Below are positions 14,178 through 57,712 of a stretch of 64,000 bases of DNA, one piece after another. Both the position numbers and the translations under genes were made by a program. The notes beneath the pieces are model-generated. The model saw only the letters and a list, made by a program, of their open reading frames with translations. It made no database searches and was not told the DNA's origin. Source of the stretch: Dehalococcoidia bacterium (GTDB taxonomy: Bacteria; Chloroflexota; Dehalococcoidia; Lucifugimonadales; UBA3495); contig OZ250155.1 of assembly GCA_965237775.1 (NCBI GenBank), forward strand, positions 2,718,682 to 2,782,681. Direction: 5' to 3'. Each line of letters starts with the position of its first letter. The first letter of the stretch is position 1.

Positions 14178-14598
14178 CGCTGGTCCGATATCTGACCTGT
14201 GAAACCGGGTCCTACGGGCTCGGACCAGGGAAGAGCCAACGAGAGAACCCGAGTTCTGCCGCGCCGCATGGCGTCGGAAGCACGTCCTGCCGGACATGGC
14301 TAACTCCACCCGCCTGTTGCCCCGTTCCTGACTTCACATTCAAGCATTCATGCATTCATCGTTCCCTTCCGGTCTCGAAGTTGCTGGACCGGGAACCCGT
14401 TACCGGTGGCACTGCCAGACCGAAAGCGAGTCCTGGACTCCGTCCGGGTCCATCTGCCTGCCAGGTTAGGCCAACTGGATGCGGAGGTCGTGCCGCCGGG
14501 TTGGATTTAGGGCCCGGTTCTCTGGTGACGAGAAGGGTGAAAACCGAGACCAATTTATTGGTTCGCGTGCAAAGATTCTGGAATGGTATCATTTGCGA

Positions 14599-33934: not shown

Positions 33935-34009
33935 TGGCTCCCGAGGCAGGATTCGAACCTGCGACCTAGCGGTTAACAGCCGCCCGCTCTACCGCTGAGC
34001 TACTCGGGA
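33935..34009 (-). tRNA. tRNA-Asn (anticodon GTT), CCA encoded
   Basis: The reverse complement reads TCCCGAGTAGCTCAGCGGTAGAGCGGGCGGCTGTTAACCGCTAGGTCGCAGGTTCGAATCCTGCCTCGGGAGCCA. It has a 7-bp acceptor stem, a D-arm, an anticodon loop CTGTTAA and a T-arm GCAGG-TTCGAAT-CCTGC. Confidence 0.9.
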
Positions 34010-39941: not shown

Positions 39942-41141
39942 ATGAGCAACCTCACCGCACTCTCGGCGAAGTCCCTCAGCAAACGTGGCAGGCATGGCGA
40001 CGGCGACGGTCTGTACCTGTACATCTCACGCTCAGGCGCCAAGTCCTGGGTGCAACGTATCGTAGTTGACGGACGGCGCCGGGACATAGGTTTGGGGCCG
40101 TATCCGGCCATCAGCCTTGGCAACGCCCGGTCCATCGCCCACGATAACCGCACCGCCGTTGCCGAGGGCCGGGACCCGGTCCTGGAGAAGCGGGAGGCTC
40201 GGGATACCACCCGCAGACCCGCTCCGTCCATTCCCACATTTGCCGAAGCCGCTTCCCACGTGATCGAGCTCCGCCGGCCCACCTGGAGCAACGCCAAGCA
40301 CGCGGCCCAGTGGACGAACACCCTGGCTACCTACGCCTATCCCGTGATCGGCACCAAGCACGTGGAAGAGGTCAACAGCGGCGATGTCCTGGCCGTCCTG
40401 ACACCGATATGGACCAGCAAGTCCGAGACCGCGGGCCGAGTCCGCCAGCGCATGGAGACCGTCTTCGACTGGGCCATCGCCCAGGGCTGGAGGCTGGACA
40501 ATCCCGCCGGCAGGTCCATCCTCAAGGTCCTCCCCAAGCTGCCCAAGGTGAAGAACCACCACCCGGCCCTGCCCTACGCGGAGGTGCCAGCGGCCTTGGA
40601 GCAGGTCCGGGAGTCCACCGCCCAACCGGTGACGAAGCTCTCCTTCGAGTTCCTGGTGCTGACCGCCGCCAGGTCCAGCGAGGTCCGGTTGGCGGAGTGG
40701 TGCGAGATCGACTGGCAGTCCAGGACCTGGACCGTTCCGGCGTCGCGGATGAAAGCGCGGAGGGAGCACCGGGTGCCACTGGTAGGTGGCGCTCTGGAAG
40801 TTCTGTCCGAGGCACGGGACCTGGATGGGGAGGCCAGCGGGCTGGTGTTTCCTGGCCGCTCAGGGAAGCCGCTGTCCAACATGGTCTACGTCACGCTGCT
40901 CCGGCGTCTCGGAATACCCGCGGTGGCCCACGGGTTCCGCAGCAGCTTCAAGGACTGGTGCATCGAATGCACAGACACTCCTTGGGTGGTGGGAGAGGCC
41001 GCGTTGGCCCACAACCTGGGAAATTCGACGGAAACAGCTTACGCCAGGAGCGACCTTTTTGAGAGGCGCCGTGGGTTGATGGCAGAGTGGGCTGATTTTC
41101 TGACTTCCAATGCACATGGAAGCGTCTCGAACAAGGCGTGA
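39942..41141 (+). CDS. Tyrosine recombinase, P4-type integrase (DUF4102 arm-binding N-domain)
   Basis: The N-terminus ...GDGLYLYISRSGAKSWVQRIVVDGRRRDIGLGPYPAISLGNAR is typical of DUF4102. The catalytic region carries HGFRSSFKDW and ...TAYARSDLFERRRGLMAEWADFL (HxxR and Tyr). Confidence 0.9.
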   Translation: MSNLTALSAKSLSKRGRHGDGDGLYLYISRSGAKSWVQRIVVDGRRRDIGLGPYPAISLGNARSIAHDNRTAVAEGRDPVLEKREARDTTRRPAPSIPTFAEAASHVIELRRPTWSNAKHAAQWTNTLATYAYPVIGTKHVEEVNSGDVLAVLTPIWTSKSETAGRVRQRMETVFDWAIAQGWRLDNPAGRSILKVLPKLPKVKNHHPALPYAEVPAALEQVRESTAQPVTKLSFEFLVLTAARSSEVRLAEWCEIDWQSRTWTVPASRMKARREHRVPLVGGALEVLSEARDLDGEASGLVFPGRSGKPLSNMVYVTLLRRLGIPAVAHGFRSSFKDWCIECTDTPWVVGEAALAHNLGNSTETAYARSDLFERRRGLMAEWADFLTSNAHGSVSNKA

Positions 41142-41553
41142 GCGAGCCCTGCGATGTGAGCGTTGGTGCTCGCTTGAGGAAGCCAACCACACACCTGTGG
41201 AATTGGCACAGCCGTCACGGTGGGAGAGTCAGAGACGTCCACTGGCCATGACGCAATTACCCGGGCTGGGAGGATCGTTGAGCAATAGCGGGTGGACCAA
41301 TTCAGGTCTGCTATTAGCGTAGTCCTGGTGTGGTCAGAGTCGCTGATAACGCCGTGGCTGGTGGTCTTGAAACCGCGCCACGGGAGCCTTGCGGTGCTCC
41401 TTACGAACCTCTCATAGCCGGATTCGCAACTGGTGATAGCAAGGAACACCGGGCAGTCAATCGACGACCTTCTGTGCACATTTGTGAAATGTTGGCTTCT
41501 CAAGACCTTCCGGAAGGACACCCACTGGCTTCTATCCTGATAAGACCGAGGTC

Positions 41554-41580
41554 TATGGTTCGAGTCCATCCAGGCCCACC
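41554..41580 (+). other. tRNA (or tmRNA) 3'-end-like fragment: T-arm plus acceptor strand, no 5' half
   Basis: TATGG-TTCGAGT-CCATC is a T-arm with one stem mismatch. It is followed by CAGGCCC-A-CC. No matching GGGCCTG acceptor strand or anticodon arm could be folded upstream. Confidence 0.45.
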
Positions 41581-41616
41581 TAGCTGGACAAAATCAAGAA
41601 CCTTTTTGTTGAGGTT
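41576..41616 (+). repeat. Direct repeat copy 1 (att-like), abutting the tRNA-like fragment
   Basis: CCACCTAGCTGGACAAAATCAAGAACCTTTTTGTTGAGGTT matches copy 2 at 37 of 41 positions. Confidence 0.85.
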
Positions 41617-41800
41617 CAAGCTAGTGGTCTAATTGACCATTAGCCCGGCGCCATCCGAAGGATGAAGTTAGTGGACCCCTGCTGACACAGCGGGGGCTTC
41701 TGCTTTGAGAGGCTCGGTACCCGCGCGGCCTTTCAAGAGGCTGCCTGCGCTGGCAACATTCCGCCTGACAGCCACTATCGTCCGCTCCAAACGCCAATGA

Positions 41801-42076
41801 CGGACTGTCCGACCAATCCCACCAATTGTAACAGTCAAGGGACGCATGGAGTTGGACTTCAGCCGTCCTGGCAAGCCGACTGACAATGCATTAATCTAGG
41901 CTTTCAACGGGCGGTTCCGTCAGGAATGTTTGAACGAGAACTGGTTCCTGTCCTTGGCCGGTGCCGAGGAGAAGGTGGAGTCCTGGCGAATACATTACAA
42001 TGGCGAAAGGCCCCACGGTGCGTTGGGGAACCTGTCCCCCAGGGAATTCGCCGTACTGGCGGAAATAGGAGATTGA
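41801..42076 (+). pseudogene. IS3-family transposase (OrfB, rve domain) C-terminal remnant with an in-frame stop
   Basis: Frame 2 reads ...[67 protein letters not shown]. The stop is TAG at 41897-41899. The N-terminal two thirds of the transposase are missing. Confidence 0.75.
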
Positions 42077-42574
42077 CCCGCAAAACTCTCACTATTACTG
42101 GCACAGGAAATGGGGCAAGACCAATGACCCTCGAGACTCGCCCTAAGCTTGGAACAGAAGATGGGGCAAGACTAGGGGATGAGCGATTCCCCTTATGGTG
42201 GCTCGATGACCGTCGCCCATTTGATGATTCCTGGGGAGCAAGCTCCAGTACTGGCGGTTCCGACGGATAGTTTTACGAATCCCAGGTCATATCTCATACG
42301 GAAATCGTCGAAAGTTACCGTGGGAGAGGAGCAGACGGAGACCAGGACGAAACAAGAGAGGTCAGCAGCTCTTCGAGTTGCCCTGAGCGAATTTGACCTG
42401 AGCCGAAATACGACGGGGCCCGGAGAGATGGGAGCCCCATCCACGGCTTAACCGCCGTGCTCAAGTGAGCGTCATTTCGGTAGTATAATAGGAAGCCATT
42501 ACTCTTGCCTGATAGAGCATTTATCCCCTTGTCGGCCGCAGGTAACAAGGCGTGCCGAGAGGTACTGGTCGATT

Positions 42575-45500
42575 ATGACACTTAGCAACCAGAGATTAGC
42601 TGTTGGATCCCTCGTCTTATGGTCGGGAGCGAAAACCTATGGCGTGGTCACGAGCCTTGCAGACAGAATGATCAATGTCCGATGGGACTCGTCCGGTCCG
42701 CCCACCCAGTTCTCGATTACCGATCCGCCATTGTCGCGGGTCGACCTGACCGGGCAACGTGTTCGCTTAATTTCGACGGGCGAAAATGCGGCTGTATTGG
42801 ATTCCACCCCGTCAGATACGCCAGCTTGGAGATGCTTTGTAGCAACTGCGGGCGGAAAAACTGTCAACGTTCCGGAAGCAGATCTGAGACCTTTGGCAGT
42901 TACCGACCCAATTGGACGATTTAAGGCTAACCTAATCGGCTCCCTTCAACAGTACCGGCTTCAGGAAGTAACGAGATGGTATCGGATCTTGCATCTCTAT
43001 GATGAGCTCGTGTCACTGGGACAGATTGGGGTGGATATAAAGCCTCACCAGGTTTCCGTTGTTCACAAGGTCGTCTCCAACTACCCGCACCGGTTCTTGT
43101 TATGTGACGAAGTAGGTTTGGGCAAGACAATTGAAGCTGGGATGGTGTTGAAGGAGCTCCGGGCCAGAGGAGGTGCCCAGCGGGTATTGGCCATTGTGCC
43201 TCCTAACTTAGTCGGACAATGGCACTTCGAGATGAAGACTAAATTCAATGAGAGTTTCTCGGTACTCAACACCGACACTGTTCGGTTTCTGCAAACCCAG
43301 GGTCAAGTCGAAAACCCATTTACTTTTTCAGACAGCGTATTGTGCTCCTCATCGTGGGTCGCCAACCCTACGTGGGCAGAATTGTGCTCTAGGGTCAATT
43401 GGGACCTAGTTATTTTAGATGAGGCTCACCATGCTAGAAGTCACCGTTCTGGCAACCGAGTAAATACTACACGCCTCTACCGCCTAGTCAGCAAGCTGGC
43501 AGAGCCGGAGCGCTTCGCCCAGCGCGGTATGCTATTTCTTACCGCAACTCCTATGCAGTTGGACACCCACGAACTCTATTCTCTTGTTGAACTCCTCGAC
43601 CCCGCTCTCTTTCCATCAGAAGACCATTTTGAACGACACCGTCGAGCCGTGCCCGGACTCTCTCGCCTTGTCGAACGGTTAAGTAGCCATGGGTTTCCGT
43701 TACCTGACGAAGAACCCGGTGAAACCATCCAACAGGTCGCCGAATGGCTCGGGTTGGATGTAAGCGTGGCCGGCCAGCGTCTCGCTTCAGGGACAGAAGA
43801 ACGAGAGTTGCTCACAGCGGAACTGGCCGATCGCCATCTTTTGAGCGAAGTATTGATCAGAAATCGAAAGGCGGAAGTGGGCGGCTTTATGCCCCGGATA
43901 GCAAGTCGATGGAAGGTTGAGTTAACACCCGAGGAGAGTGCAGCCCTCGAAGCTGTTGAAGATTACGTCCAGTACGGATTCCAACTCGCCGAAGGGACTA
44001 ACGACGCTCCTACTGGATTTGTAATGGTGACTTTTCAGAAACTCATGGCATCCAGTATTGCAGCAATCCGGAAGTCGCTAGGCAGACGTCTGGAGAGGAT
44101 ACTAGCCAAAAATCCTCAAGCCTCCGTGAGTGGATATGAGCTAGAGGAGCGGTTATTGAACGATGAAGAGGCAAGCGACATTGTAGGAGGTATCGGTTCC
44201 GCGCGTGACTTGGTTGACGCGGAACTATCGCTGCTTGAAAGGGCCATAGAATCACTCGACCTAGTAAAAAGCGACTCCAAGGCGGACGTGTTAGAAAAAC
44301 AGCTTTCGATACTGTTCAACGAATCTCCAAGCGAAAAGGTGCTCATTTTTACACAGTTTAGGGAAACCCAGCAACACCTTGGAGATGCTCTCACCGAGAG
44401 AGGCTGGGGCGTAAATCTCTTTCATGGTCAAATGAAACCCGTGGAGAAGGACCGTGCGGTGGAGCGGTTTAGGAACGAAGTTGGTCCCCAAATTCTCATT
44501 TGCACCGAGGCAGGTGGGGAGGGAAGAAATTTCCAGTTTTGTCATGTCCTCGTTAATTACGACCTTCCATGGAATCCAATGAAGGTTGAGCAGCGAATTG
44601 GGAGGGTGGATCGAATCGGTCAGGATCAAGCAGTGAGCATTTTTAACTTGTGGGTGAAGGACACCGTCGAGGAGAGAGTCCTTGATGTGTTAGAGAAGCG
44701 AATCCGAGTATTCGAGGAAACTGTAGGCGGCCTTGACCCCATATTGGGAGACACTGAAAACGACATCGTCAAGATCATGAAAATCGCCGGGGAGAGACGA
44801 GTGGAGGCGCTCGAGGAATTTGGAAAACAATTAGAGGAGCAAGTCCGACACGCAAGGGACGCAGAGGCAAAATTAGGCGACTTCATTATGGATACGAAAT
44901 CATATCGAAGAGAACTCGCGGAGCGTATCGCTGGGCAGCCTTCACCAATAAAGAACTACGACCTTGATACCTTTATTGGCAAATTGCTTTCGGATGCACG
45001 GACATATATACGGCGAACCGGTCCCATTTATGAGCTGACCTTCCAAGGCGAAATACTAGACGTCCATAAGGAGCTGTTCGTCGGAGGAACCAAACGCAAG
45101 GCGGTATTTCGCGCAGATCGCCGCGCCGATTCTGAAGATGTGGAGTTCATGGCGTTTGGCCATCCAATAGTAGATGGAATGGTAGCGCAGGTGCTTGCGG
45201 AGGAATACGAAGGTGTAACAGGGACGCGCCGCGTCCCCGCAAGTGATGACCTTGCTCCGTGCACCGGATGGCTCTTCACTTACCAGTTCAATGTGCCAGG
45301 TGTACGTACGACGGAGTACCTTGAACCGGTGTTCGTGAGCGACGATGGGATAGTCGACCTGAACATTGGGCACAGACTAGTGAAGCATGCTTTCCACTTC
45401 GACGATGACGAAAGGGAGATAGATACCGCGGCGATACCTGACAATCTTGATGATCTAGAACCACTGGCAAACCGGATTGCCGACGAAAAGAGGGAAGAAC

Positions 45501-45967
45501 TTCAAGGGAACGCCGAAGACCAGGCTGCCTCAAGGGTCGGAAGGGAGGTCTCAAGATTAGATGAGTGGTTCGACTACAGAGAGCGGGTTGCCAGGGACAA
45601 AGTAGAATCTACCCGGGCAATTTTGGAAAGCATCCGTGAAAGTGGCGACGAATCACAGCGACAAATTCTGCCCGCCTGGGAGGCCAACCTTAGACGGGAC
45701 GAAGAGTTACTCGAAAATCTGGCCCCCGAGCGCAGCCGTCGGATGGCAGACGTACAAAAACACCGCTACCCGCAAGTAGCTTGGGCCTTGAAGTCGCTCG
45801 GGCGTATCGAGGTCGTCGATGCCGCGCCTATTGATGGACCAGATGAGGGTTTGGAACTCCGTGAGGAGTTTTCCGCAGAATTGCAGGCATCATTGGAAGC
45901 CATCGAACAAGGTGTCGCAACTCACTCTGTCGAAAAGGTGGCCCAGAGGCTGGGTCTGTCTTGGTAA
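42575..45967 (+). CDS. SNF2-family (RapA/HepA-like) helicase with long C-terminal extension ending in an antitoxin-like tail
   Basis: Helicase motifs are present: LLCDEVGLGKTIEAG (I), LDEAHHAR (II), LTATPMQ (III) and QRIGRVDRIGQ (VI). An N-terminal ~130 aa beta-rich region precedes them. The last ~40 aa, LREEFSAELQASLEAIEQGVATHSVEKVAQRLGLSW, resemble the C-terminal segment of small RelE/ParE-partner antitoxins. Confidence 0.9.
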   Translation: MTLSNQRLAVGSLVLWSGAKTYGVVTSLADRMINVRWDSSGPPTQFSITDPPLSRVDLTGQRVRLISTGENAAVLDSTPSDTPAWRCFVATAGGKTVNVPEADLRPLAVTDPIGRFKANLIGSLQQYRLQEVTRWYRILHLYDELVSLGQIGVDIKPHQVSVVHKVVSNYPHRFLLCDEVGLGKTIEAGMVLKELRARGGAQRVLAIVPPNLVGQWHFEMKTKFNESFSVLNTDTVRFLQTQGQVENPFTFSDSVLCSSSWVANPTWAELCSRVNWDLVILDEAHHARSHRSGNRVNTTRLYRLVSKLAEPERFAQRGMLFLTATPMQLDTHELYSLVELLDPALFPSEDHFERHRRAVPGLSRLVERLSSHGFPLPDEEPGETIQQVAEWLGLDVSVAGQRLASGTEERELLTAELADRHLLSEVLIRNRKAEVGGFMPRIASRWKVELTPEESAALEAVEDYVQYGFQLAEGTNDAPTGFVMVTFQKLMASSIAAIRKSLGRRLERILAKNPQASVSGYELEERLLNDEEASDIVGGIGSARDLVDAELSLLERAIESLDLVKSDSKADVLEKQLSILFNESPSEKVLIFTQFRETQQHLGDALTERGWGVNLFHGQMKPVEKDRAVERFRNEVGPQILICTEAGGEGRNFQFCHVLVNYDLPWNPMKVEQRIGRVDRIGQDQAVSIFNLWVKDTVEERVLDVLEKRIRVFEETVGGLDPILGDTENDIVKIMKIAGERRVEALEEFGKQLEEQVRHARDAEAKLGDFIMDTKSYRRELAERIAGQPSPIKNYDLDTFIGKLLSDARTYIRRTGPIYELTFQGEILDVHKELFVGGTKRKAVFRADRRADSEDVEFMAFGHPIVDGMVAQVLAEEYEGVTGTRRVPASDDLAPCTGWLFTYQFNVPGVRTTEYLEPVFVSDDGIVDLNIGHRLVKHAFHFDDDEREIDTAAIPDNLDDLEPLANRIADEKREELQGNAEDQAASRVGREVSRLDEWFDYRERVARDKVESTRAILESIRESGDESQRQILPAWEANLRRDEELLENLAPERSRRMADVQKHRYPQVAWALKSLGRIEVVDAAPIDGPDEGLELREEFSAELQASLEAIEQGVATHSVEKVAQRLGLSW

Positions 45968-46230
45968 CATACCGGGTCGAGTTCGAGGATACAGCAGAAA
46001 AAGACCTCGCTCGATTGGACAATACAGTGGCCCAACAGGTCCTCGATAAGCTGGGTTGGTTGTCTGACAACGCCGGTGCGGTGCGGCACAAGGTGCTGAA
46101 ACACCAATGGACAGGCGTTTTCACTTTACATGTTGGCAATTATCGGGCTCTATATAACCTTTGCCGCGAAGAACGCCTAATTGTGATCCTTTTCGTCAAG
46201 CATCGAAGAGAAGTTTACGATACGGGCTAG
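45961..46230 (+). CDS. RelE/ParE-family type II toxin
   Basis: 89 aa reading VTYRVEFEDTAEKDLARLDNTVAQQVLDKL....LHVGNYRALYNLCREERLIVILFVKHRREVY, the RelE/ParE pattern. It has a TTG start that overlaps the helicase stop by 7 nt. Confidence 0.8.
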   Translation: MVTYRVEFEDTAEKDLARLDNTVAQQVLDKLGWLSDNAGAVRHKVLKHQWTGVFTLHVGNYRALYNLCREERLIVILFVKHRREVYDTG

Positions 46231-46303: not shown

Positions 46304-46344
46304 CCACCTAACTGGACAAAATCAAGAACCTTCATGTTGCGGTT
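46304..46344 (+). repeat. Direct repeat copy 2 (att-like)
   Basis: CCACCTAACTGGACAAAATCAAGAACCTTCATGTTGCGGTT matches copy 1 at 37 of 41 positions. Confidence 0.85.
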
Positions 46345-46562
46345 TACTCTTCAGGTATAACTTAACTGTGTTCTTTAGGCCGTAAGCTTTCGGCTAAAGG
46401 GCGTCGGGGCGCCAAGAATCGCGCGGTACGGGGCCACGACCTCTCAGGTCGTGGCCTTAGTTAGTGTCCATTCCGTACGCGGACCAGCCAACTCCAGTCA
46501 AGCGGCAAGGTAAGAAACTGGCTTCCTCTCGGCAAGAGCCCTTTTCCCCTCAGACAGCCTAG

Positions 46563-47776
46563 GGAAACTCTGAACAAGGTTGGCGGGGGCTTTTCTGGTG
46601 ATTATTGGGGGAGTTTCCTGGAAATACTCCGGCTTCCGGGGCCGTTTTCCCGAATGTTCCGCACTCCCATTTCGTTTCAGCGGGGGCGTTGCGGGCTTTG
46701 ACCGGCCCTGCCGCTGGCCCCCGGCCGGATTTGGGCCCACTGTGCCCACGTCACCCGGTCAGTTGGCCTTCCGCCGCCAGCAGGTTGCCCAAGCCAAAAA
46801 GCAGCGCCAGACGCTCCGTGTTCTTCGCCAGTCCCCGGTAACGCACCTTGGCGTAGCCGAACACCCGCTTCACTTTCAGGAACGGGTGCTCCACCTTGGC
46901 CCGCACCGATGCCTTGCGCCTCTCCGCCAACGCTTCTGCACTCTCAGGGTCAAGTTTCCGTCGTTTCCCCGGACGCATCGCCACCTGCCATTCCACCTCA
47001 CGCCCCAAGTTCTCATCCCTCTTGTGGACTCCTTGGTACCCAGCGTCGCACCACACCTGCGTCTCCCCGCCGTGCAGCAGACCGTGCGCCTCCGTCACGT
47101 CGTGCGCATTGGCCGCAGTGGTGCTCAGGCTGTGCACTATCCCGGTTTCGGAATCCACGCCGATGTGCGCCTTCATCCCGAAATGCCACTGATTCCCCTT
47201 CTTCGTCTGATGCATCTCCGGGTCCCGCTCCCCAGCCCGATTCTTGGTCGAGGACGGAGCCTCGATGATGCTGGCGTCCACAATGGTTCCCTCCCGCAGC
47301 CGCAGTCCCTGCGACTCCAGATGGGCGTTGATCTCCTCCAACAGTCTCTTGCCCAGTTGGTGCCGCTCCAGGAGATGGCGGAAGTTTAGGATGGTGGTCT
47401 CGTCCGGCAGCGCCTCCGCCAGGCTCAGGCCCACGAACCGCCTGACCGATTCGGCCTCGTAGAGCAAATCCTCCATGCCGGGGTCGCTCAAGTTGTAGAA
47501 CAGCTGCACGCAGTGAATCCGCAGCATCACCGGCAGCGGATAGGGCCGGCGACCCTTGCCCGGCTTGGCATAAACCGGCCGGATACGCTGCTCCAGCCTC
47601 TGCCAAGGAATTAGGCCGTCCATGCGTTGCAGGAACAGCTCGCGGCGGGTCTTGCGTTTCTTGCCTTGGTATTCCAGGTCGGCAAAAGTCGGCTGGTCCA
47701 TCAATTCTCACTCCGTCCGGCACCGGCTGGTCCAGCAATACTATGCCACAAGCAGACGGGCTTGTTCAGAGTTTCC
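46563..47776 (-). mobile_element. Intact IS5-family insertion sequence (IS5 group) with 16-bp terminal inverted repeats and a CTAG target duplication
   Basis: IR GGAAACTCTGAACAAG lies at 46563-46578, and its exact reverse complement at 47761-47776. CTAG flanks both ends (46559-46562 and 47777-47780), matching the YTAR 4-bp duplication known for IS5. There is a single transposase ORF inside. Confidence 0.85.
46751..47704 (-). CDS. IS5-family DDE transposase
   Basis: The N-terminus reads MMDQPTFADLEYQGKKRKTRRELFLQRMDGLIPWQ...GRRPYPLPVMLRIHCVQLFYNLSDPGMEDLLYE. It closely parallels the IS5 transposase pattern. Confidence 0.9.
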   Translation of the reverse strand: MMDQPTFADLEYQGKKRKTRRELFLQRMDGLIPWQRLEQRIRPVYAKPGKGRRPYPLPVMLRIHCVQLFYNLSDPGMEDLLYEAESVRRFVGLSLAEALPDETTILNFRHLLERHQLGKRLLEEINAHLESQGLRLREGTIVDASIIEAPSSTKNRAGERDPEMHQTKKGNQWHFGMKAHIGVDSETGIVHSLSTTAANAHDVTEAHGLLHGGETQVWCDAGYQGVHKRDENLGREVEWQVAMRPGKRRKLDPESAEALAERRKASVRAKVEHPFLKVKRVFGYAKVRYRGLAKNTERLALLFGLGNLLAAEGQLTG

Positions 47777-47932
47777 CTAGGTTGTCGTTGGTCTCGCGGA
47801 GCAATACATGGGACCTTCCGTCAGTAGGATACTCTAGTTTTCGGCATTAAGGTCCGATAATGATCAAGGCGTCTGGAGCCACCAATTCCACTGCACCTCA
47901 ACACTCACGAGAAGCCCGGCATATAATCAAAC

Positions 47933-50227: not shown

Positions 50228-51130
50228 TTAGTTCTCCGGGTTTATAGCAAACAGAAACTCAGGAAGAGATTCCCACCAGTCGAGAGTGACCGTGTTCACA
50301 CCCATTGAGCGCAGGTAGGCTTCTTTGATAATATCTCTCCGTGCCTGAACCAAGTAGCGAACAGGCATGTCATCGTTCGTCGCTAGGCGCGCCTCATCGT
50401 GGATCAATGTGAAGTTCGGGTCCGAGAGGCTGAATCCCACGAACAAGAAAGTGCAAGACCTTAACTCTTGGCCCAGGTGAGTAAGCATCTCGGTACGCTC
50501 TCTCCTGGCCTTAGCAAAGTCCATGCGGCACAGAATGGTCGTTTCCGGACGGTCTATCGAGCCATTAAGCTTCACCAAGTGGATGAGGCCAGGTTCTTGT
50601 CGATGTGCGTTGAACTCAGATGGCGTGCTGCTTACGCGCACGTTACGACCGACCTTTTGGAATGCGAGCTCAATGAGTTCATCAAAGTTGGTCGTAAAAA
50701 TCGTGCTAACGGGAAGTCTTGTAAGCTCGTGATGGGACCTAGTTAGTCGCTGTCTATCGGTTCCCCGCGTGACAAATTGTTCCCGGAGGAAAGCATAGTA
50801 GTTCGCTGTCCCTACCTTCTCACGGAACAGTTCGGCACAATCGATCGGGCTCTGCTCCTTGAAGAATCGCTCGACCTCATCGGAGTGCTCCTGTAACTCT
50901 GGCAGACTCGCCACACGCTCGCGCATTCTGTTAACAAGCATCGGCCAGGACGGGAAGCGGCGGCCATCGTCATGGTGCCCAAATTCGAACAACGCGCGCC
51001 CGCGGTCTACGCCGTAGGACAGACCTGCTCCGAGGAAAATAAAGACATCGACATCACTATCGGCGATTCTGCCGCGAATCTCCGCCACTAGGCGAGCGTT
51101 CTGCGCGTCTTCAAGCCAGTTAGGAAGCAT
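50228..51130 (-). CDS. SIR2_2-family (SIR2-like) protein with Asn in place of the expected His
   Basis: FIFLGAGLSYG (GAGxS), IFTTNFDELIE (TTNxD) and FLFVGFSLSDPNF are all SIR2_2-like. The usual K-L-H-G-S segment reads VKLNGS (Asn189, codon at 50564-50566). Confidence 0.8.
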   Translation of the reverse strand: MLPNWLEDAQNARLVAEIRGRIADSDVDVFIFLGAGLSYGVDRGRALFEFGHHDDGRRFPSWPMLVNRMRERVASLPELQEHSDEVERFFKEQSPIDCAELFREKVGTANYYAFLREQFVTRGTDRQRLTRSHHELTRLPVSTIFTTNFDELIELAFQKVGRNVRVSSTPSEFNAHRQEPGLIHLVKLNGSIDRPETTILCRMDFAKARRERTEMLTHLGQELRSCTFLFVGFSLSDPNFTLIHDEARLATNDDMPVRYLVQARRDIIKEAYLRSMGVNTVTLDWWESLPEFLFAINPEN

Positions 51131-51242
51131 CTGCTCAATTCCTTAGGTTGAGACATCTGTGAGACCTTTTTTGGTTCAGTTCGTAAAAGGTTCGTCAAGG
51201 AACTTGCTGCCCTAGACCTGCCTCTCGGTCTCCCTTTTGGGG

Positions 51243-52409
51243 CTACCCGACTTCAGCGAGCGATTCCAATGCCTTCGCAACCAGAGATACGGCTTCGTGT
51301 ATTTCCAGATCGGACGTGAATCGCCCAAAGCTGAAACGTACCGAAGAATCTGCCTGACTTTCACTTACCCCCATTGCATTGAGCACATGGGAGGGTTCGG
51401 GAATTCCTGAAGTACACGCGGCTCCGGTAGACGCGGCGAGACCGGGTTGAAGCGCTCCTAATATGTCCTGAGCTGCGAACCCGTCGAACCGCAAGTTAGC
51501 ATTACCAGGGTGTCGCCGATCCCATGCAGGACCATTGATGGTTACGGGAAAGGCGCTATCCAAGAGAAGATTCACAAAAAGGTTACGTTGCTTGGCAACC
51601 TCCGGGCGCTCCCGAGATCCGTCCGCTTCTACAATTTCTGCGGCGGCAGCCATTCCCACGCACAATGGTACTGGCACCGTGCCGGAACGCAGGCCATTCT
51701 GTTGACCACCACCGTATATGAGAGGTTCTATCTCAGTCTGTAGGTTCCTTCGGACGTACAACGCCCCAATGCCCTGCGGCCCGTAAATCTTGTGTCCCGA
51801 CAGGCTAATGAGGTCAGCATGTTTTGTTAGACGACTTATGTCCATGGCACAGGGCGCCTGCGCTGCATCGCAGTGAAGGATGACGCCGTGGCCGGACAGC
51901 AATCCAGCAATGGCAGGCAAGTCCTGAATTGTCCCAACCTCGTTATTGACCGCCATAATAGAGGCGGCAAGGACCGAATCGTCGAGCATAGTTTCCAAAA
52001 CATCCAAGTCGATGAAGCCTTCTCGGTCCACTGGAATTGTCTCGACGGTGAATCCTTCGCGTTCCCCCAATACCCTAGCTGCCGCCAAGACGCATTTGTG
52101 CTCGATGGCGCTGACCAGAATCCTCGGGCGCGACGGCGGCGCTCGCCGAGCCAATCCGAAAATCGCGAGATTGTTGGCCTCCGTGGCCCCGGAGGTGAAC
52201 ACAATCTCGTCCGGGTCGGCACCTATCAGCGCGGCAACGGAAGTTAGGGATTCTCGGACCGCCTCCGCCGCCTTCCACCCCACTATGTGGTCGTTGGAGT
52301 GGGGGTTTCCAAACGATTCGCCCCAAAAGGGCAACATCTTCTCCAACACCCGTGGGTCCACCGGCGTGGTAGCTTGGTAGTCAGCGTAGATGGTGTTGTT
52401 GGGCGACAT
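51243..52409 (-). CDS. sspA: Class V PLP-dependent cysteine desulfurase (SspA/DndA-like)
   Basis: SGHKIYGPQGIGALYV holds the PLP lysine and STGAACTSG the catalytic Cys loop. It is divergent from the DUF4007 / ATPase / PAPS-reductase-like genes. Confidence 0.8.
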   Translation of the reverse strand: MSPNNTIYADYQATTPVDPRVLEKMLPFWGESFGNPHSNDHIVGWKAAEAVRESLTSVAALIGADPDEIVFTSGATEANNLAIFGLARRAPPSRPRILVSAIEHKCVLAAARVLGEREGFTVETIPVDREGFIDLDVLETMLDDSVLAASIMAVNNEVGTIQDLPAIAGLLSGHGVILHCDAAQAPCAMDISRLTKHADLISLSGHKIYGPQGIGALYVRRNLQTEIEPLIYGGGQQNGLRSGTVPVPLCVGMAAAAEIVEADGSRERPEVAKQRNLFVNLLLDSAFPVTINGPAWDRRHPGNANLRFDGFAAQDILGALQPGLAASTGAACTSGIPEPSHVLNAMGVSESQADSSVRFSFGRFTSDLEIHEAVSLVAKALESLAEVG

Positions 52410-52499
52410 GCAGTCATTACCCCTGACTTCAAATCTTAGAGACCGTGACGTTTCCCGTCTTTACAATACAGTACGCGGGTGCTATCGTCCACCTGGACG

Positions 52500-53495
52500 A
52501 TGCCGCCAGTAGGGGGACAAGTGCTTAGGGGACCTCTCTATCGGGACGAATACCACCCGCAGTTATCAGGCCATGAGACCTTCCCAATTCGTTACGGGTG
52601 GTTGAAAAAGGCTTTCGACGCGGTTCGGGATACCGAAGGACAAGAAGACAACCGGCAGGTATTCACCGGCCCGGACGCGATCGCCCGGTTTGGGGTGGGC
52701 AAGAACATGGTTGCTTCAATGCGCCATTGGGCCACTGTAACCGAGATTGTCCTCGAAGATCCCGACCACCGCCATATTTCCACCACTCCCCTCGGACGCC
52801 TGATATTCGGCGACGGGGGACTTGACCCCTACATGGAACATCCGGCTACCACTTGGTTGCTGCACTGGCACCTGTGCGGGCGAGACACCAAGACCACGTG
52901 GTTCTGGGCATTTCATTACTACCCGTCGATTTCGTTCGAGAGGGAGGTGCTGGCCCAAGGGATACAGAAGCTCGCCGAAGAGAGGGAGTGGACTCGCGCA
53001 TCTGTCGCGACCATACGGAGGGACGTTTCCTGCTTTATTCGCACCTACGTCGCCCAAGCACCGTCGGGCAACGGGGGATATGAAGACGGCTTGGAGTCGC
53101 CGCTGACCGAGTTAGGCCTAATCAAGCCCACCGGCCGCCGCGACGGCTTTCGATTCGTGCGAGGACCGAAGCCGTCTTTGGGGCCTGGCGTATTCGGTTA
53201 CGCCGTGACCGACTATTGGCTACGGAATTTCCCTACCGCCAATACTTTGTCCTTCGAGGCGCTCACTCACGAGCCTGGTTCTCCCGGACGGACCTTTCTA
53301 CTTGAAGAAAACGACATGGTGGATATGTTGGTCGCCCTGGAGGATGTAAGCCGGGGTGCCTACCAATGGTCTGAGACGGCGGGATTGAAGCAACTCATCC
53401 GCAGCCGGTCGGTTTCGGATGCCGATGCCACTGAGTGGCTGGAAAAGGACTACTTACCCTATGGCCAACTGGAGTTAAGCCGTGCCTTTGGCTGA
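52500..53495 (+). CDS. sspB: DUF4007-family protein (SspB-like)
   Basis: SGHETFPIRYGWLKKAFDAV matches the N-terminal DUF4007 signature (HETF..RYGWL.K). The ATG at 52500 is preferred to the track GTG at 52479. Confidence 0.7.
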   Translation: MPPVGGQVLRGPLYRDEYHPQLSGHETFPIRYGWLKKAFDAVRDTEGQEDNRQVFTGPDAIARFGVGKNMVASMRHWATVTEIVLEDPDHRHISTTPLGRLIFGDGGLDPYMEHPATTWLLHWHLCGRDTKTTWFWAFHYYPSISFEREVLAQGIQKLAEEREWTRASVATIRRDVSCFIRTYVAQAPSGNGGYEDGLESPLTELGLIKPTGRRDGFRFVRGPKPSLGPGVFGYAVTDYWLRNFPTANTLSFEALTHEPGSPGRTFLLEENDMVDMLVALEDVSRGAYQWSETAGLKQLIRSRSVSDADATEWLEKDYLPYGQLELSRAFG

Positions 53496-56400
53496 ACGGG
53501 TCACCGTCTCCCGAAGATTTCAACGGGCAATCCGGATTGACACCGATCTAGACGACCCTTTCGCCCTGGAAGGATTCGTCTGCCCTCAATCGTCGGCTAT
53601 GGTCCTGGAAACCATGGCACAGCACCTGTCCGAATCCGGTCAAGCGGCTTTCACTTGGACCGGCCCCTACGGCAGTGGAAAGTCCAGCTTGGTGGTTGCC
53701 CTATCCGCCTTGATCGGCTCGGATAGCGATGCGAGGCGGGAAGCAGCGTCGGTGATAGGCGAAGCAACTGCCTCCGCCGTCTGGAACGCCATGCCACCCA
53801 AGAAGAATGGATGGAAGGTCTTGCCAATTGTGGGCCGTCGGGACCGTCCCGAGAGGCTGGCGGAAGAGGCGGTCCGAGCCAGAAAACTCGGAGGGCAGGG
53901 CCGCCGCCGAGGATGGTCTGAAAAACAGGCACTGGACACGTTGCAGAGAATCGCTTTCAGGGACCCGGATAACACCGGCGGCCTCATCGTCTTCATTGAC
54001 GAGATGGGAAAACTCTTGGAGGGGGCGGCGCGAGAGGCGTCTGACGTTTACTTCTTCCAGCAACTAGCGGAGATGGCCTCCCGGAGCGATGGCCGTCTGG
54101 TGGTCGTCGGAATACTCCATCAAGCCTTCGAGGAGTATTCCTACCGATTGTCCAGGGAAACGAGAGAGGAGTGGTCCAAGATACAGGGCCGCTTCATAGA
54201 CCTCCCCGTGAACGCCGGCGCCGACGAGCAGATAAGTCTATTGGGGCGGGCCATCGAAAGTGACCACCGGCCTGAGAAACCAGGGGCTCTGTCCCTGGCA
54301 GTGGCGGGACTGACCAACCGCACCACCGCGGGAAACCTGCCTGAGCTACTGGAAGCCTGTTGGCCGTTGCACCCGGTAGTCCCTTGCCTCCTTGGCCCCA
54401 TTTCCCGCCGAAGATTCGGACAGAACCAGCGCAGCATCTTCGGGTTCCTGAACTCCAGTGAACCCAGCGGTTTCCAGGACTTCCTGCGCCGTGGCCAGGA
54501 TGCCGACCTCTATACCCCCAACCTTCTTTGGGAATATCTCCGCCTCAACCTTGAACCGTCCATCATGGCTTCCCCGGACGGGCACCGTTGGGCGTTGGCG
54601 GTGGATGCACTGGAGCGGTGTCAGGCCTTGGGCGGCAGCGAGTTCCACCTGCGCCTCCTGGAAACCATCGCATTGATAGACCTTTTCAAGGAACGTTCCG
54701 GTCTGGTTCCAAACGCTGATCTGCTTGCCTGCGTATTCCCGCAGTTGGATTCCAGGACCATGACCTCCGCACTAGATCAGTTGCAACAGTGGTCATTGGT
54801 CATCTACCGCAAATTCAACGACTCGCACAGCATTTTCGAGGGCAGTGACTTCGACGTTGACGAGGCGGTTGGGCTAATCCTTGAGGCCATGGATGACACG
54901 GACTTCGGCTTGCTCAATGAGATAGCCAACCTACAACCAACAGTGGCTAAGCGACACTATCACAAGACCGGCGCCATGCGCTGGTACGATATGGCAATTG
55001 CACCCTTGGCCGACGTGAAAGCTAGGCCCGAGACCTACCGCCCTAAGCCCGGCGGAGTAGGAACCTTTGTCCTGGCGGTTCCCACACTAAGCGAATCCGT
55101 AGAGTCGGCCCAAATATCGGCAACAAAAGCCACCGAACAGGTTCGCGACTGGGACCTGGTTGTCGGGCTGTCCCAGGAGGCTTGGAACTTTACGTCGTTG
55201 GCCAGGGAACTGCTGGCCACCGAGCGGGTGAGAGACGAGTCCCCCGAATTACAGGGCGACCGCGTAGCTAGAAGGGAAGTGGAAGCGCGAATAGGCAGTT
55301 TGCGGGGTTACATCGAAAGCGAGTTGGGCCGCGCCTTCGACTCGGCCCTTTGGCACGCGAGTGGCGGGCAGGGTGAGAGATTGACCCAGGCGGAGCTAAA
55401 CGGGCTGGCATCACGATTGGCAGATAAGCGATTTAGCATGACTCCCCGTCTGCATAACGAGCTCTTGAATCGGACAAAGCCGTCGAGCAACGCCGTGGCC
55501 GCCCAGAATTTCCTGCTGCGTCGTATGGCTCTCCACGAAGGGGAGGAGCGCTTGGGAATCGAAGGGTTTCCCGCGGAAGGTGGATTGTTCGCCTCCCTGC
55601 TGGAAAAAAGCGGACTTTATCGCAATACGCTGCAAGGATGGCGTTTCAGCCTCCCTTCCTGTGGCGCCGACGACCCGTGCGATCTCGCCCCAGCGTGGCA
55701 AGCGGCGACGGATTTGCTGGAATCCAATCGGGACAGGGCAGTGCCGGTTTCCGAGATGTACGAAATTTGGCGGGGGCAACCCTTTGGTATCAAGGACGGC
55801 CTACTGCCGGTCCTGGCAGCGGCCTTTATTTTGTCCCAGCGGCGTGACGTGGCGTTCTACCGGCAGAGTATCTTCCAGGCCCGCGTGACGGACTTGGACA
55901 TGGACTATCTGGCGAAGGACCCCCGCGATGTCCAACTCCGATGGATGGACCTTTCTGAATCGTCACGGCAGTTGCTCTCCGACATGGCTGGAATCGTTCG
56001 CTCCCTTGATGAGGACAACGCCCTTCCTAATCTTGAACCTATTGACGTGGCCAAGGGACTGGTTTCAATCCACGACCGGTTGCCGCCCTGGGTTGGGCGG
56101 ACTCAGCACCTGTCTTCTAACGCCAAGCGCGTCCGCCAACTGTTCAAGCAGGCCAGTGACCCCAACAGCCTTATATTCGACGACATTCCTCGTTTGCTGT
56201 CCGATGGATTGGAAGCGGTCGGTGAAAACACCCTGGCACCAATCTCCAACAATGTCCATGAGGGTTTGGTAGAGCTTCAGCAGGCATATCCGGCCATGCT
56301 GCACCGGCTGAGGGAAACTCTCCTCACTGAATTGCAGGTTCCCAACGCCTCTGGTCCGATGCTGGCGGAACTTCGGGAAAGGGCGAAAAACGTCCGAGAA

Positions 56401-56886
56401 CTCAGCGGGGACCACCGGATGGAAGCATTTATCATGCGCCTTGCCCAGTTCTTTGGCACTGATGCCGACATGGAAAGCCTGGCAAGCATGGTCGCCAATA
56501 AGCCGTCCCAGAGTTGGGTGGACGCCGACATTGACCGAGCCACGGTAGAGCTCGCTGACTCGGCTCAAAGGTTCATGCGGCTCGAGTCCTTCGCCCACGT
56601 TAAAGGCCGCTTTGACAACCGCCATTCTATGGCCGTTACCGTGGGCATGAGCGGACAGCCGACAACCGTCCATGATGAGTTCGAAGTGACATCTATGGAA
56701 CGTCCTGATGTGCGACATCTAACCTCCGAAATAGAGAGAGCCTTGCAGTCCGCAGGTGAACAGCGGCGCAATGTCATCCTGGCCGCTTTGGCGGAAGTGA
56801 GCGCCCTCTATCTCGACCCGAAGGCCGCAGACGACGACACAGTGGACCCTACAGTTCGAGAACAGGTGGTTGAATATGATAGTTAA
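53482..56886 (+). CDS. sspC: Large P-loop ATPase (SspC-like)
   Basis: 1134 aa with Walker A GPYGSGKSS near the N-terminus and Walker-B-like LIVFIDEMGK. It overlaps sspB by 14 nt and sspD by 17 nt. Its size and position match SspC of SspABCD clusters. Confidence 0.65.
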   Translation: MPLAERVTVSRRFQRAIRIDTDLDDPFALEGFVCPQSSAMVLETMAQHLSESGQAAFTWTGPYGSGKSSLVVALSALIGSDSDARREAASVIGEATASAVWNAMPPKKNGWKVLPIVGRRDRPERLAEEAVRARKLGGQGRRRGWSEKQALDTLQRIAFRDPDNTGGLIVFIDEMGKLLEGAAREASDVYFFQQLAEMASRSDGRLVVVGILHQAFEEYSYRLSRETREEWSKIQGRFIDLPVNAGADEQISLLGRAIESDHRPEKPGALSLAVAGLTNRTTAGNLPELLEACWPLHPVVPCLLGPISRRRFGQNQRSIFGFLNSSEPSGFQDFLRRGQDADLYTPNLLWEYLRLNLEPSIMASPDGHRWALAVDALERCQALGGSEFHLRLLETIALIDLFKERSGLVPNADLLACVFPQLDSRTMTSALDQLQQWSLVIYRKFNDSHSIFEGSDFDVDEAVGLILEAMDDTDFGLLNEIANLQPTVAKRHYHKTGAMRWYDMAIAPLADVKARPETYRPKPGGVGTFVLAVPTLSESVESAQISATKATEQVRDWDLVVGLSQEAWNFTSLARELLATERVRDESPELQGDRVARREVEARIGSLRGYIESELGRAFDSALWHASGGQGERLTQAELNGLASRLADKRFSMTPRLHNELLNRTKPSSNAVAAQNFLLRRMALHEGEERLGIEGFPAEGGLFASLLEKSGLYRNTLQGWRFSLPSCGADDPCDLAPAWQAATDLLESNRDRAVPVSEMYEIWRGQPFGIKDGLLPVLAAAFILSQRRDVAFYRQSIFQARVTDLDMDYLAKDPRDVQLRWMDLSESSRQLLSDMAGIVRSLDEDNALPNLEPIDVAKGLVSIHDRLPPWVGRTQHLSSNAKRVRQLFKQASDPNSLIFDDIPRLLSDGLEAVGENTLAPISNNVHEGLVELQQAYPAMLHRLRETLLTELQVPNASGPMLAELRERAKNVRELSGDHRMEAFIMRLAQFFGTDADMESLASMVANKPSQSWVDADIDRATVELADSAQRFMRLESFAHVKGRFDNRHSMAVTVGMSGQPTTVHDEFEVTSMERPDVRHLTSEIERALQSAGEQRRNVILAALAEVSALYLDPKAADDDTVDPTVREQVVEYDS

Positions 56887-57712
56887 AAAGCGCCACGTCT
56901 TGGGGCTGTCCGGAGGGCGTGACAGCGCGGCCCTAGCGGTCTATATGCGACAGAACCACCCTGAACACCGGGTGGACTACTTTTTTACCGACACCGGAAA
57001 AGAACTGCCAGAGGTGTACGAATTCCTAGTGAAACTGGAAGGGTTCCTCGGCCAGCCCATAGTGCGGTTGAACCCTGACCGGGATTTTGACTTTTGGCTC
57101 AAGCAGTACAACAACTTCCTTCCATCGCCGCAAACCCGGTGGTGTACCCGGCAGTTAAAGCTCCGCCCATTTGAGCAATGGATTCGGCCCAGTCTTGAGA
57201 ATGGCGAAACCGTGTACAGCTACGTGGCCATCCGGTCAGACGAAGAGTACCGGGAAGGGTATGCCTCCAAACACGAAAATCTCATCGTCAAACTCCCTCT
57301 TAAGGACGCCGGCATTGACAAGGCTGGAGTGCTAGATATACTCGACAGCGCTGGTTTAGGATTGCCAGAATATTACGAATGGCGCACTCGTAGCGGCTGT
57401 ACCTTCTGCTTTTTCCAGCAAAAGATCGAGTGGGTTCGATTGATAGAGCGGCATCCTCGTTATTTCGAGGAAGCGAAGAGCTACGAGAAGAACGCCATTG
57501 ACCACGGGTCGCCGTTTACCTGGAGCCAGGGCGAGTCCTTGGAAGAACTGGCGCAGCCTGAACGCGTAGCTCAGATCACTCAGGAGCACCAGCAGAGGCT
57601 GGAGAGGATGCGGGGCAAGAGCCAGGTAAATCCGTTGCGCCCCGACGCGGAGCCAATAGACATCGATGACTTATATGGTAAGGCTAAGGTTTGTTTAGCG
57701 TGTCACAAGTAA
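56870..57712 (+). CDS. sspD: PAPS-reductase/PP-loop ATP pyrophosphatase family protein (SspD/DndC-like)
   Basis: The PP-loop reads LGLSGGRDSAALAVY, followed by conserved RWCTRQLK and C-terminal Cys residues (SGCTFCF, CLACH). An alternative ATG lies at 56876. Confidence 0.8.
   Translation: MNMIVKKRHVLGLSGGRDSAALAVYMRQNHPEHRVDYFFTDTGKELPEVYEFLVKLEGFLGQPIVRLNPDRDFDFWLKQYNNFLPSPQTRWCTRQLKLRPFEQWIRPSLENGETVYSYVAIRSDEEYREGYASKHENLIVKLPLKDAGIDKAGVLDILDSAGLGLPEYYEWRTRSGCTFCFFQQKIEWVRLIERHPRYFEEAKSYEKNAIDHGSPFTWSQGESLEELAQPERVAQITQEHQQRLERMRGKSQVNPLRPDAEPIDIDDLYGKAKVCLACHK

Follow-up and report, generated by a model that had tools for sequence, protein, structure and literature searches.

The locus described here lies in a 64,000-nucleotide stretch of the genome of a Dehalococcoidia bacterium (contig OZ250155.1, positions 2,718,682 to 2,782,681; hereafter the window), in which a gene for an SNF2-family helicase runs into a gene for a RelE-type toxin. 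The helicase open reading frame (ORF; 42575-45967, + strand) encodes 1130 amino acids (aa) and ends with a TAA stop codon at 45965-45967, and the toxin gene (45961-46230, + strand) encodes 89 aa and starts with a TTG at 45961. As an initial annotation made from this DNA alone had stated, the toxin start thus precedes the helicase stop, with a 7-nt overlap of TTGGTAA. The last 42 residues of the helicase (45839-45964, + strand; residues 1089-1130, PDEGLELREEFSAELQASLEAIEQGVATHSVEKVAQRLGLSW) constitute what we call the antitoxin module, and a variable acidic linker (45809-45838, + strand; residues 1079-1088, ...VVDAAPIDG) lies between it and RIEVV, the usual C-terminus of this helicase family. 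The tail sequence quoted in the initial annotation corresponds to residues 1095-1130.

Comparison of the helicase with its relatives delimits this tail. Among the 120 closest clusters at 90% identity, those below ~67% identity to the window protein are ~1085-1092 aa long and end with '...HRYPQVxWALKSLGRIEVV' and a few more residues; tail-less relatives in general stop at RIEVV or a few residues past it. About 50 of the 120 clusters, at 67%-94% identity, bear ~50 extra C-terminal residues consisting of a variable acidic linker followed by 'PDxGLELREEFSAELQASLEA..GG....AEEVAQRLGLSW'. In an AlphaFold2 (AF2) model of the window protein, the strand at residues 1069-1081 is confidently placed, the predicted local distance difference test score (pLDDT) of residues 1085-1093 in the linker falls below 50, and helices follow this low-confidence linker at 1097-1111 and 1119-1125. 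The tail is therefore predicted to be two helices tethered to the helicase.

What the tail is related to was revealed by a locus (L081) where a toxin 53-54% identical to that of the window (P0136) is preceded directly by a free 74-aa protein bearing the same module. Over the 45 aa at the C-terminus of this protein, identity to the tail is 51% (BLASTP E 2e-15), which bears out the proposal that the last ~40 helicase residues resemble the toxin-binding part of a small antitoxin. Hidden Markov model (HMM) searches give the same answer, as the window tail matches a profile of the module with E 1.2e-23 and a profile of the 74-aa family with E 1.3e-16, and it conforms to the module consensus DPDxGLELREdf..L..SL.av..GG.tipaeEVA.rLGLsW. 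The alignment to the 74-aa family begins only at helicase residue ~1086, and the family's N-terminal helix segment of ~30 residues (VADLTVDEFKxLVREVVxQTL) is absent, its place being taken by the helicase. Members of this unnamed family occur in Chloroflexota and other phyla (for example P0159), and their C-terminal 42-43 residues are 51-69% identical to the tail; one of them, P0161 of Litorilinea aerophila, carries the UniRef name 'Addiction module antitoxin Rel...'.

The free proteins are abundant. The 43-aa module profile retrieved 1825 candidates among 5.8e9 proteins, and the best 120 of these are all small proteins, mostly of 74 aa, with E values of 2e-17 to 9e-14 and without a recorded Pfam domain. 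When 1.84e9 cluster representatives were scanned exhaustively with HMMER, 354 clusters matched with E of 1e-3 or lower; almost all are proteins of 48-100 aa that end in the module. The 74-aa family was also used to scan metagenomes, which gave 80 loci, 76 of which have room downstream for another gene, and in 67 of these 76 a toxin of the window family lies directly downstream; the other nine look like orphaned antitoxins. On the strength of this 67/76 linkage, the sequences place the module in a genuine, uncurated and apparently uncharacterized family of RelE-partner antitoxins. Related arrangements include a 78-aa member of the family (L086) and a protein in which a Phd/RelB-like N-terminus is followed by the module (L084). 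At yet another locus (L174) a free protein of 70 aa consists of an unrelated low-complexity leader and the module, and is followed by an intact, overlapping toxin gene of the helicase-linked type; no SNF2 helicase is nearby. From this pair it seems that the module with almost any leader would be sufficient as an antitoxin.

With these profiles in hand, a six-frame HMM search of the entire 64-kb window (module and 74-aa family) matches the helicase C-terminus alone, in agreement with the earlier statement that the locus has no separate antitoxin ORF. The small ORFs flanking the toxin have no Pfam match, and the separate small antitoxin gene that adjoins the toxin in a canonical type II toxin-antitoxin (TA) operon is missing from the window. 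Neither was a DNA-binding domain detected in the last 88 helicase residues, in searches of Pfam at E up to 1 and of NCBIfam, where TIGR02574 was the only, below-threshold match.

The toxin itself can be assigned with more precision than the RelE/ParE-type label it had been given: the RelE branch holds by both sequence and fold, and the ParE-type option does not. It matches PF05016 (ParE_toxin) with E 1.8e-10 and 41.7 bits against a cutoff of 23, and falls just below the cutoff of TIGR02385 (RelE_StbE; 23.0 bits vs 27.9). Among sequences in the PDB, M. tuberculosis RelE2/RelG (3g5o) is closest (E 8.7e-8, 36% identity), followed by T. thermophilus RelE and, weakly, E. coli RelE; ParE is absent from these matches. 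The AF2 model of the toxin (pLDDT 90.8) superposes on RelE2 with a TM-score of 0.79-0.86 and a root-mean-square deviation of 2.0, and the leading Foldseek matches are RelE2, T. thermophilus RelE, RelE1 and E. coli RelE, with ParE structures lower. Residues R62, H81-R82-R83 and Y86 are invariant in 32 members of the toxin family and align with the YRLVY and RSEVY segments of E. coli RelE; we take the E. coli catalytic residues aligned to them to be those numbered R61, R81 and Y87.

Tail and toxin are inherited together. The fusion followed by a RelE gene recurs in other genomes: in 78 loci of helicase relatives drawn from species-representative genomes, the tail is present in 11 (L001-L009, L022 and L064) and the toxin in exactly those 11, where it always abuts or overlaps the helicase stop. 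The other 67 have neither tail nor toxin by tblastn and by HMM search in all six frames. The association (11/11 vs 0/67) has a Fisher exact p of 1.3e-13, a value that ignores shared ancestry; since the tailed clade arose once, the evidence is of retention and not of independent recurrence. Indeed, in a neighbor-joining tree computed without the tail columns the tailed proteins fall in one clade, comprising 34 tailed proteins and a single tail-less one (P0076), which has no toxin either, and the tail is retained down to ~67% helicase identity. Pairwise ratios of nonsynonymous to synonymous substitution (dN/dS), approximate because dS is 1.2-1.9 and near saturation, are 0.16 for the tail, 0.16 for the toxin, 0.07-0.13 for the helicase domains (0.07 for the core) and 0.27 for the linker, the least constrained segment. 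Tail and toxin are both under purifying selection and evolve at the same pace. None of the 78 loci shows a precursor state in which a helicase gene precedes distinct genes for a 74-aa antitoxin and a toxin.

The reading we favor, to which we assign a probability of roughly 65%, is that the window holds a type II RelE TA module whose antitoxin has been cut to a 42-residue toxin-binding module and joined C-terminally to a RapA/DrmD/BrxHII-like SNF2 helicase that is itself functional, the pair serving as an addiction or lock-in device. The helicase-antitoxin fusion postulated in the initial annotation is upheld by the homology of the tail, the strict co-occurrence with the toxin, the purifying selection and the free pair at L174. 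In the mechanism we propose, ribosomes ending the helicase would reinitiate at the overlapping toxin start, tying toxin synthesis to helicase synthesis, and the toxin would dock on the flexible helix-loop-helix tail and be kept inactive on the helicase. Losing or truncating the helicase polypeptide, through gene loss, a nonsense mutation, a frameshift, proteolysis or possibly phage inhibition, would free RelE to cleave ribosome-bound mRNA and arrest growth. The pair would in this way act as an addiction or lock-in device for a helicase gene on a mobile cassette, and might also guard the helicase protein. We infer the physical binding, the neutralization, the toxicity, the translational coupling and the toxin-releasing event on which such a mechanism would depend.

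Several observations weigh against this reading. The 11/11 vs 0/67 association represents a single evolutionary event followed by retention, not 11 independent ones. Lock-in is not absolute, as both partners have decayed at L064, where the helicase and toxin genes are both degraded, and at L088-L090 (described below). The rest of the source genome could hold a second neutralizer. For the 74-aa family no experimental characterization was found in the literature, and the tail and the free antitoxins have only sub-threshold matches in Pfam and NCBIfam. The module profile likewise found no solved antitoxin among PDB sequences, only spurious short matches to '...EEVA..LGL'. Other comparisons of this kind were similar in outcome: the suggestion that the tail is TIGR02574-like did not survive (14.8 bits vs a cutoff of 31.9, E 0.021), the tail has no Pfam match, including to PF09720 (Unstab_antitox), to which related proteins have weak matches only, the Phd/RelB-like antitoxin of L084 has no match in the PDB, and an hhalign comparison of the module with M. 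tuberculosis RelF gave a probability of 0.4% and E 0.15. No structural homology can be claimed for the tail.

The overlap at the gene junction takes several forms. The 10 other tailed loci keep junction variants (GTGA, ATGGTGA and TAAATG), and the forms seen across tailed loci are CTGGTGA (with a GTG start), ATGGTGA, TTGGTAA and TAAATG. In the window the stop is TAA, so that the usual GTG is now GTA and the TTG one codon upstream is the start; L003 is arranged in the same way, with a TTG start and a TAA stop. That the overlap is kept by differing codon solutions argues for selection on coupled translation. The same region bears on whether a separate small antitoxin might be released from the helicase gene, by an internal start or by a protease cut, the full-length helicase then having no part in neutralization. 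The window does contain an in-frame ATG 74 codons before the stop, databases hold proteins of 48-50 aa that comprise little beyond the module, and the low-confidence linker could be a cleavage site. The methionine of RRMADVQKH, however, which had been put forward as an alternative internal start, is I, T or L in most relatives. Across the 11 loci, the final 100 codons of the helicase gene hold no conserved in-frame ATG, GTG or TTG at any position, and no such codon comes with a consistent Shine-Dalgarno sequence. The internal start therefore has to be given up, and we regard a separate antitoxin of either origin as highly improbable.

The module is not confined to helicases. At L083 a 588-aa C-terminal fragment of a Type ISP restriction-modification protein (PF18135) ends with 'DPDEGLEFKEEFVQEMERRMNAVAAGEPTIPWEEVKRRHGWD' and is followed by an intact, overlapping toxin gene, and two fragments of Type III Mod methyltransferases (P0281 and P0327) end in the module and are followed by a truncated toxin. 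Helicase derivatives with internal deletions (P0272, P0293 and P0291) have kept the tail in frame. At L088-L090 (4474-5430) the toxin gene follows a 159-aa 'mini-helicase', composed of the helicase N-domain and the tail, and is split by an insertion of ~560-660 nt, with toxin residues 16-28 duplicated at both ends of the insertion. The hosts are mostly decayed, and we read the tail as the part that must stay while a live toxin is present. The tail-only decayed derivatives suggest that a toxin could force a neighboring gene to keep its 3' end and, with it, its reading frame. The range of its partners suggests that the module is a C-terminal cassette for toxin binding that combines promiscuously with other domains. 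Its other architectures include the 74-aa antitoxin duplicated in tandem (P0333), the module joined to an N-terminus like that of CopG antitoxins (P0320), and further forms (P0380, P0276, P0331/P0411 and P0395/P0406/P0410), several of them of 130-250 aa with unknown N-terminal domains.

Two other antitoxin types are fused to helicases of this family, in both cases at the N-terminus. P0049 and P0051 begin with a complete HigA antitoxin (TIGR02607, 100 bits vs a cutoff of 47.7). The preceding gene, close upstream, encodes HigB (PF05015, E 1.7e-12); in L080 it is intact and begins with TTG, and in L079 it carries a frameshift or an assembly error. Four further proteins (at L010 and L012, and P0063 and P0081) have an N-terminal DUF4926 domain (E 4.6e-11) with a DUF6883 gene immediately upstream (E 1.5e-36); in two Latescibacterota genomes the DUF6883 and DUF4926-helicase genes lie at 5295-5627 and 5644-9255 of L010 and at 5357-5710 and 5695-9525 of L012. 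The gene arrangement, from which alone this is judged, suggests that DUF6883 and DUF4926 form a toxin-antitoxin-like pair. In both of these fusions the fused domain is at the terminus facing the partner gene. Several of these toxin genes had been missed by gene callers, namely the intact RelE toxin gene of L174 (5207-5467) and the HigB genes of L079 (4710-4988) and L080; toxin genes that overlap a preceding stop, or that start with TTG or GTG, are easily left unannotated. A 726-aa protein encoded at L037 (9677-11857, - strand), by a gene convergent with and just downstream of a distant helicase relative, has a RelE/ParE-like N-terminus (LYRLRVGDWRAVF...) that matches PF05016 weakly (E 0.028); it may represent a large protein to which a toxin domain has been fused.

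The helicase has the Pfam domains SNF2-rel_dom and Helicase_C, and the motifs of its Snf2 ATPase core (DEVGLGKT, DEAHH and QRIGRVDRIGQ) are intact. In its AF2 model (mean pLDDT 76), a Tudor-like beta domain at the N-terminus precedes a Snf2 core of two lobes, and an alpha/beta domain and a long hairpin of helices make up the C-terminal part. It had been described as SNF2/RapA-like, and the best full-length Foldseek match is indeed E. coli RapA (6bog_A; E 1.9e-37, 1140 aligned columns, TM-scores of 0.54 and 0.61); the other matches cover the ATPase core only. The protein matches both the RapA equivalog model NF003426 (369 bits vs 576) and the DISARM DrmD model NF038317 (336 bits vs 610) strongly, though below their cutoffs, and its best matches in PADLOC are BrxHI|BrxHII (357 bits) and DrmD (266 bits). 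No conserved neighbor, and no DrmA-like gene, was found beside the helicase in its 34 closest loci, the genes flanking other tailed loci being unrelated metabolic genes with an occasional transposase, and no PglZ, PglX or BrxC is present in the repeat-bounded cassette described below or among the neighbors scanned. In the window and in all of 20 loci compared, the helicase gene is 3-16 points lower in GC than the flanking sequence. This foreign GC content and the variable gene context speak against the protein being a housekeeping RapA orthologue encoded by a core gene. No close relative is borne by the viral contigs of IMG/VR, where one relative was found at 29% identity.

More distant relatives do have conserved partners. 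Those at 41-51% identity (L024, L031, L034, L035, L039 and L050) are followed by a gene for a protein of 1123-1143 aa, which in L031 matches DISARM DrmA in PADLOC with 996 bits; by sequence these pairs are DISARM-like and link the solitary helicase to DrmD. Relatives at ~35% identity (L045-L065), from Actinomycetota and sponge-associated bacteria, have an overlapping downstream gene for a ~445-aa Hsp70/actin-like ATPase (L045 9033-10385; L058 8760-10097). The Hsp70-like partner of L045 has no match in PADLOC, and this SNF2 and Hsp70-like pair may be an undescribed two-gene system.

These observations allow us to weigh two other explanations of the fusion. The first is that it is a frozen accident: a TA cassette landed downstream of the helicase gene, a deletion fused the essential half of the antitoxin in frame, and the arrangement persists only since a cell with an intact toxin could not survive losing the tail; the helicase would work on its own and gain nothing. 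That the module tolerates many unrelated N-terminal partners, short disordered leaders included, that the fusion arose once, that decayed hosts keep the tail and that no conserved neighbors point to a larger system are all as such an accident would have it. Chance is, however, hard to credit with two more independent antitoxin fusions at the other terminus of the same helicase family; moreover, the fused form is widely spread (~50 of the 120 closest clusters), and the pair travels as a unit with consistently foreign GC. We consider a mere accident unlikely.

The second is that the locus is a sensor-effector system for abortive infection, in which the helicase would sense infection and its activity state, not its mere presence, would gate RelE. 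RelE would be freed from the tail when the helicase engages phage nucleic acid or RNA polymerase complexes, undergoes an ATP-driven conformational change, or is inhibited or degraded by a phage protein, and translation in the infected cell would then shut down. This explanation shares the fusion anatomy with the lock-in reading. It is consistent with the placement of the helicase in the defense-associated DrmD/BrxHII/DpdE-like SNF2 group, relatives of which stand beside DrmA, with the location of the window cassette in a low-GC island that has SIR2 and SspABCD-like genes, with the fusion of three unrelated antitoxin types to one helicase family, with the occurrence of the tail at the end of Type ISP and Type III restriction-modification proteins, and with the strong purifying selection on the helicase core. 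The ietHAS system offers a precedent, as a DrmD-like SNF2 helicase is needed there for defense by a TA pair and its ATPase mutants are cytotoxic (PMC13069673). Against it, the other tailed loci are flanked by ordinary metabolic genes and not by defense genes, both restriction-modification examples are truncated remnants, and no sequence feature ties the state of the ATPase to the tail. Gating by helicase activity is thus a possibility to be taken seriously, if one on which we would not bet. A broader and more speculative version, which we also hold to be rather doubtful, is that such fusions would be dead-man's switches on nucleic-acid translocases: RelE would be parked on the helicase and freed by a change of state (foreign nucleic acid or stalled transcription complexes) or by a phage anti-defense protein that blocks or degrades the helicase, converting a failed first-line defense into translational shutdown. 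If this were true, the recurring fusions (the tail, HigA and DUF4926, and those to Type ISP and Type III enzymes) would reflect a general design principle, and many 'orphan' toxins would have their antitoxins hidden as tails of large enzymes.

Whichever event would release the toxin, the locus differs from the systems to which it can be compared. Like the RelBE systems of M. tuberculosis (RelBE2 and RelFG, 3g5o) and E. coli, it has a toxin of RelE fold with antitoxin-coding sequence immediately upstream that overlaps the toxin start. Unlike them, the window has no small antitoxin gene and no ribbon-helix-helix, Phd/YefM or helix-turn-helix domain, and its module is the last 42 aa of a 1130-aa helicase with no significant similarity to solved RelB or RelF. 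The likeness to ietHAS lies in the genetic coupling of a DrmD-like SNF2 helicase to a TA pair, and the cytotoxicity of the ATPase mutants there is antitoxin-like; in ietHAS, however, the helicase has a gene of its own, and a serine protease and an ATPase act as toxin and antitoxin, respectively, whereas here the antitoxin peptide is covalent to the helicase and the toxin is RelE-type. Both ietHAS and DarHTG are TA systems to which a helicase has been recruited as a separate gene (PMC13069673). The helicase shares a Tudor-like N-terminus, an Snf2 core and C-terminal alpha/beta domains with RapA, BrxHII and DrmD; BrxHII of BREX has a RapA-like architecture with a single Tudor domain (PMC12839542). 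It differs from all three in being solitary and antitoxin-tailed, with no DISARM or BREX partner in the cassette.

Type II components within large multidomain proteins, helicases included, are known from PhoH2, in which a PIN toxin is fused to a PhoH helicase, and from EzeT, in which antitoxin and toxin are in one chain (PMC4826407). PhoH2 thus joins the toxin to the helicase and EzeT the toxin to the antitoxin, whereas here the antitoxin is on the helicase and the toxin is separate. The initial annotation had cited PsyrTA as a precedent for a helicase-type antitoxin, a comparison that fails, as the RecQ-like protein of PsyrTA is listed as the toxin (PMC8790059). The literature searched, which lay outside subscription journals, yielded no account of an antitoxin module joined to an SNF2 helicase or to a restriction-modification enzyme. 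The free partners are themselves overlooked: the 74-aa family has no Pfam or NCBIfam model and no recognizable DNA-binding domain, and this absence of a model, despite hundreds of sequence clusters, is an annotation blind spot. To our knowledge the RapA, BrxHII and DrmD families have no antitoxin tail. A functional analogy to a guard is provided by PrrC-EcoprrI, in which a latent RNA-cleaving toxin is held by a large DNA-translocating defense enzyme and unleashed upon phage inhibition; PrrC itself, an anticodon nuclease, has its gene inside a type I restriction-modification locus and bears no antitoxin-derived tail. We know of no sequence relationship between PrrC and the window pair, and the analogy concerns the guard reading only.

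How type II TA systems are activated, and how they are tied to phage defense, is still debated. An antitoxin peptide carried covalently on an ATP-driven nucleic-acid motor, in a conserved and widespread clade, makes a link between the presence, integrity or activity of the motor and the release of a toxin testable. Programs that find TA systems seek two small adjacent genes, so that the window toxin would be called an orphan.

The pair is located in a 4.7-kb insertion bounded by a left (41576-41632) and a right (46304-46360) direct repeat. The bracketing repeats had been reported as 41 bp; the first 41 nt are identical at 37 of 41 positions as stated, and the whole repeat is 57 nt long at 81% identity. 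Its 29-nt core occurs exactly twice in the window, where shuffled sequences give an expectation of 0, and in none of the 173 other loci fetched. The notion of a mobile cassette stands insofar as the repeats are present and the pair moves between genomes as a unit with consistently foreign GC content; the repeats themselves are specific to the insertion site of this genome and not a part of the cassette elsewhere. Inside the repeat-bounded segment, the IS3 remnant noted beside the pair is confirmed as the C-terminus of an IS3-family transposase (41930-42076, + strand; Pfam rve_3, E 1.1e-11). Between this remnant and the helicase promoter region are two adjacent 48-nt imperfect direct repeats, 75% identical (42074-42172). 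Outside the system, just downstream of it, is an intact IS5-family insertion sequence (46553-47786, - strand) with 26-nt inverted repeats at 46553-46578 and 47761-47786 that are 96% complementary, and with a transposase gene at 46751-47704 (Pfam DDE_Tnp_1 and DUF772).

The helicase-toxin pair is within a low-GC defense island that starts at a tyrosine integrase gene (39942-41141, + strand; Pfam Phage_int_M, Arm-DNA-bind_3 and Phage_integrase), which sits at the boundary between chromosome of ~60% GC and island of ~52% GC. Further into the island are genes for a SIR2_2 protein (50231-51130, - strand), a class-V aminotransferase (51246-52409, - strand), a DUF4007 protein (52479-53492), an 1134-aa protein with no Pfam match (53482-56883) and a PAPS-reductase-like protein (56870-57709). 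To judge by these gene products, 50231-57709 looks like an SspABCD-type DNA phosphorothioation system with SIR2. At the island border, the sequence at 41540-41580 (GGTTCGAGTCCATCCAGGCCCACC) abuts the left direct repeat and resembles the 3' part of a tRNA or tmRNA (T-arm and acceptor end), as would be usual for the site where an island attaches; no RNA gene is reported at this border by ARAGORN or Rfam, and the sole tRNA of the window is a tRNA-Asn at 33935-34009. Upstream of the island, a single ORF of 3303 aa occupies 14479-24390 on the + strand.

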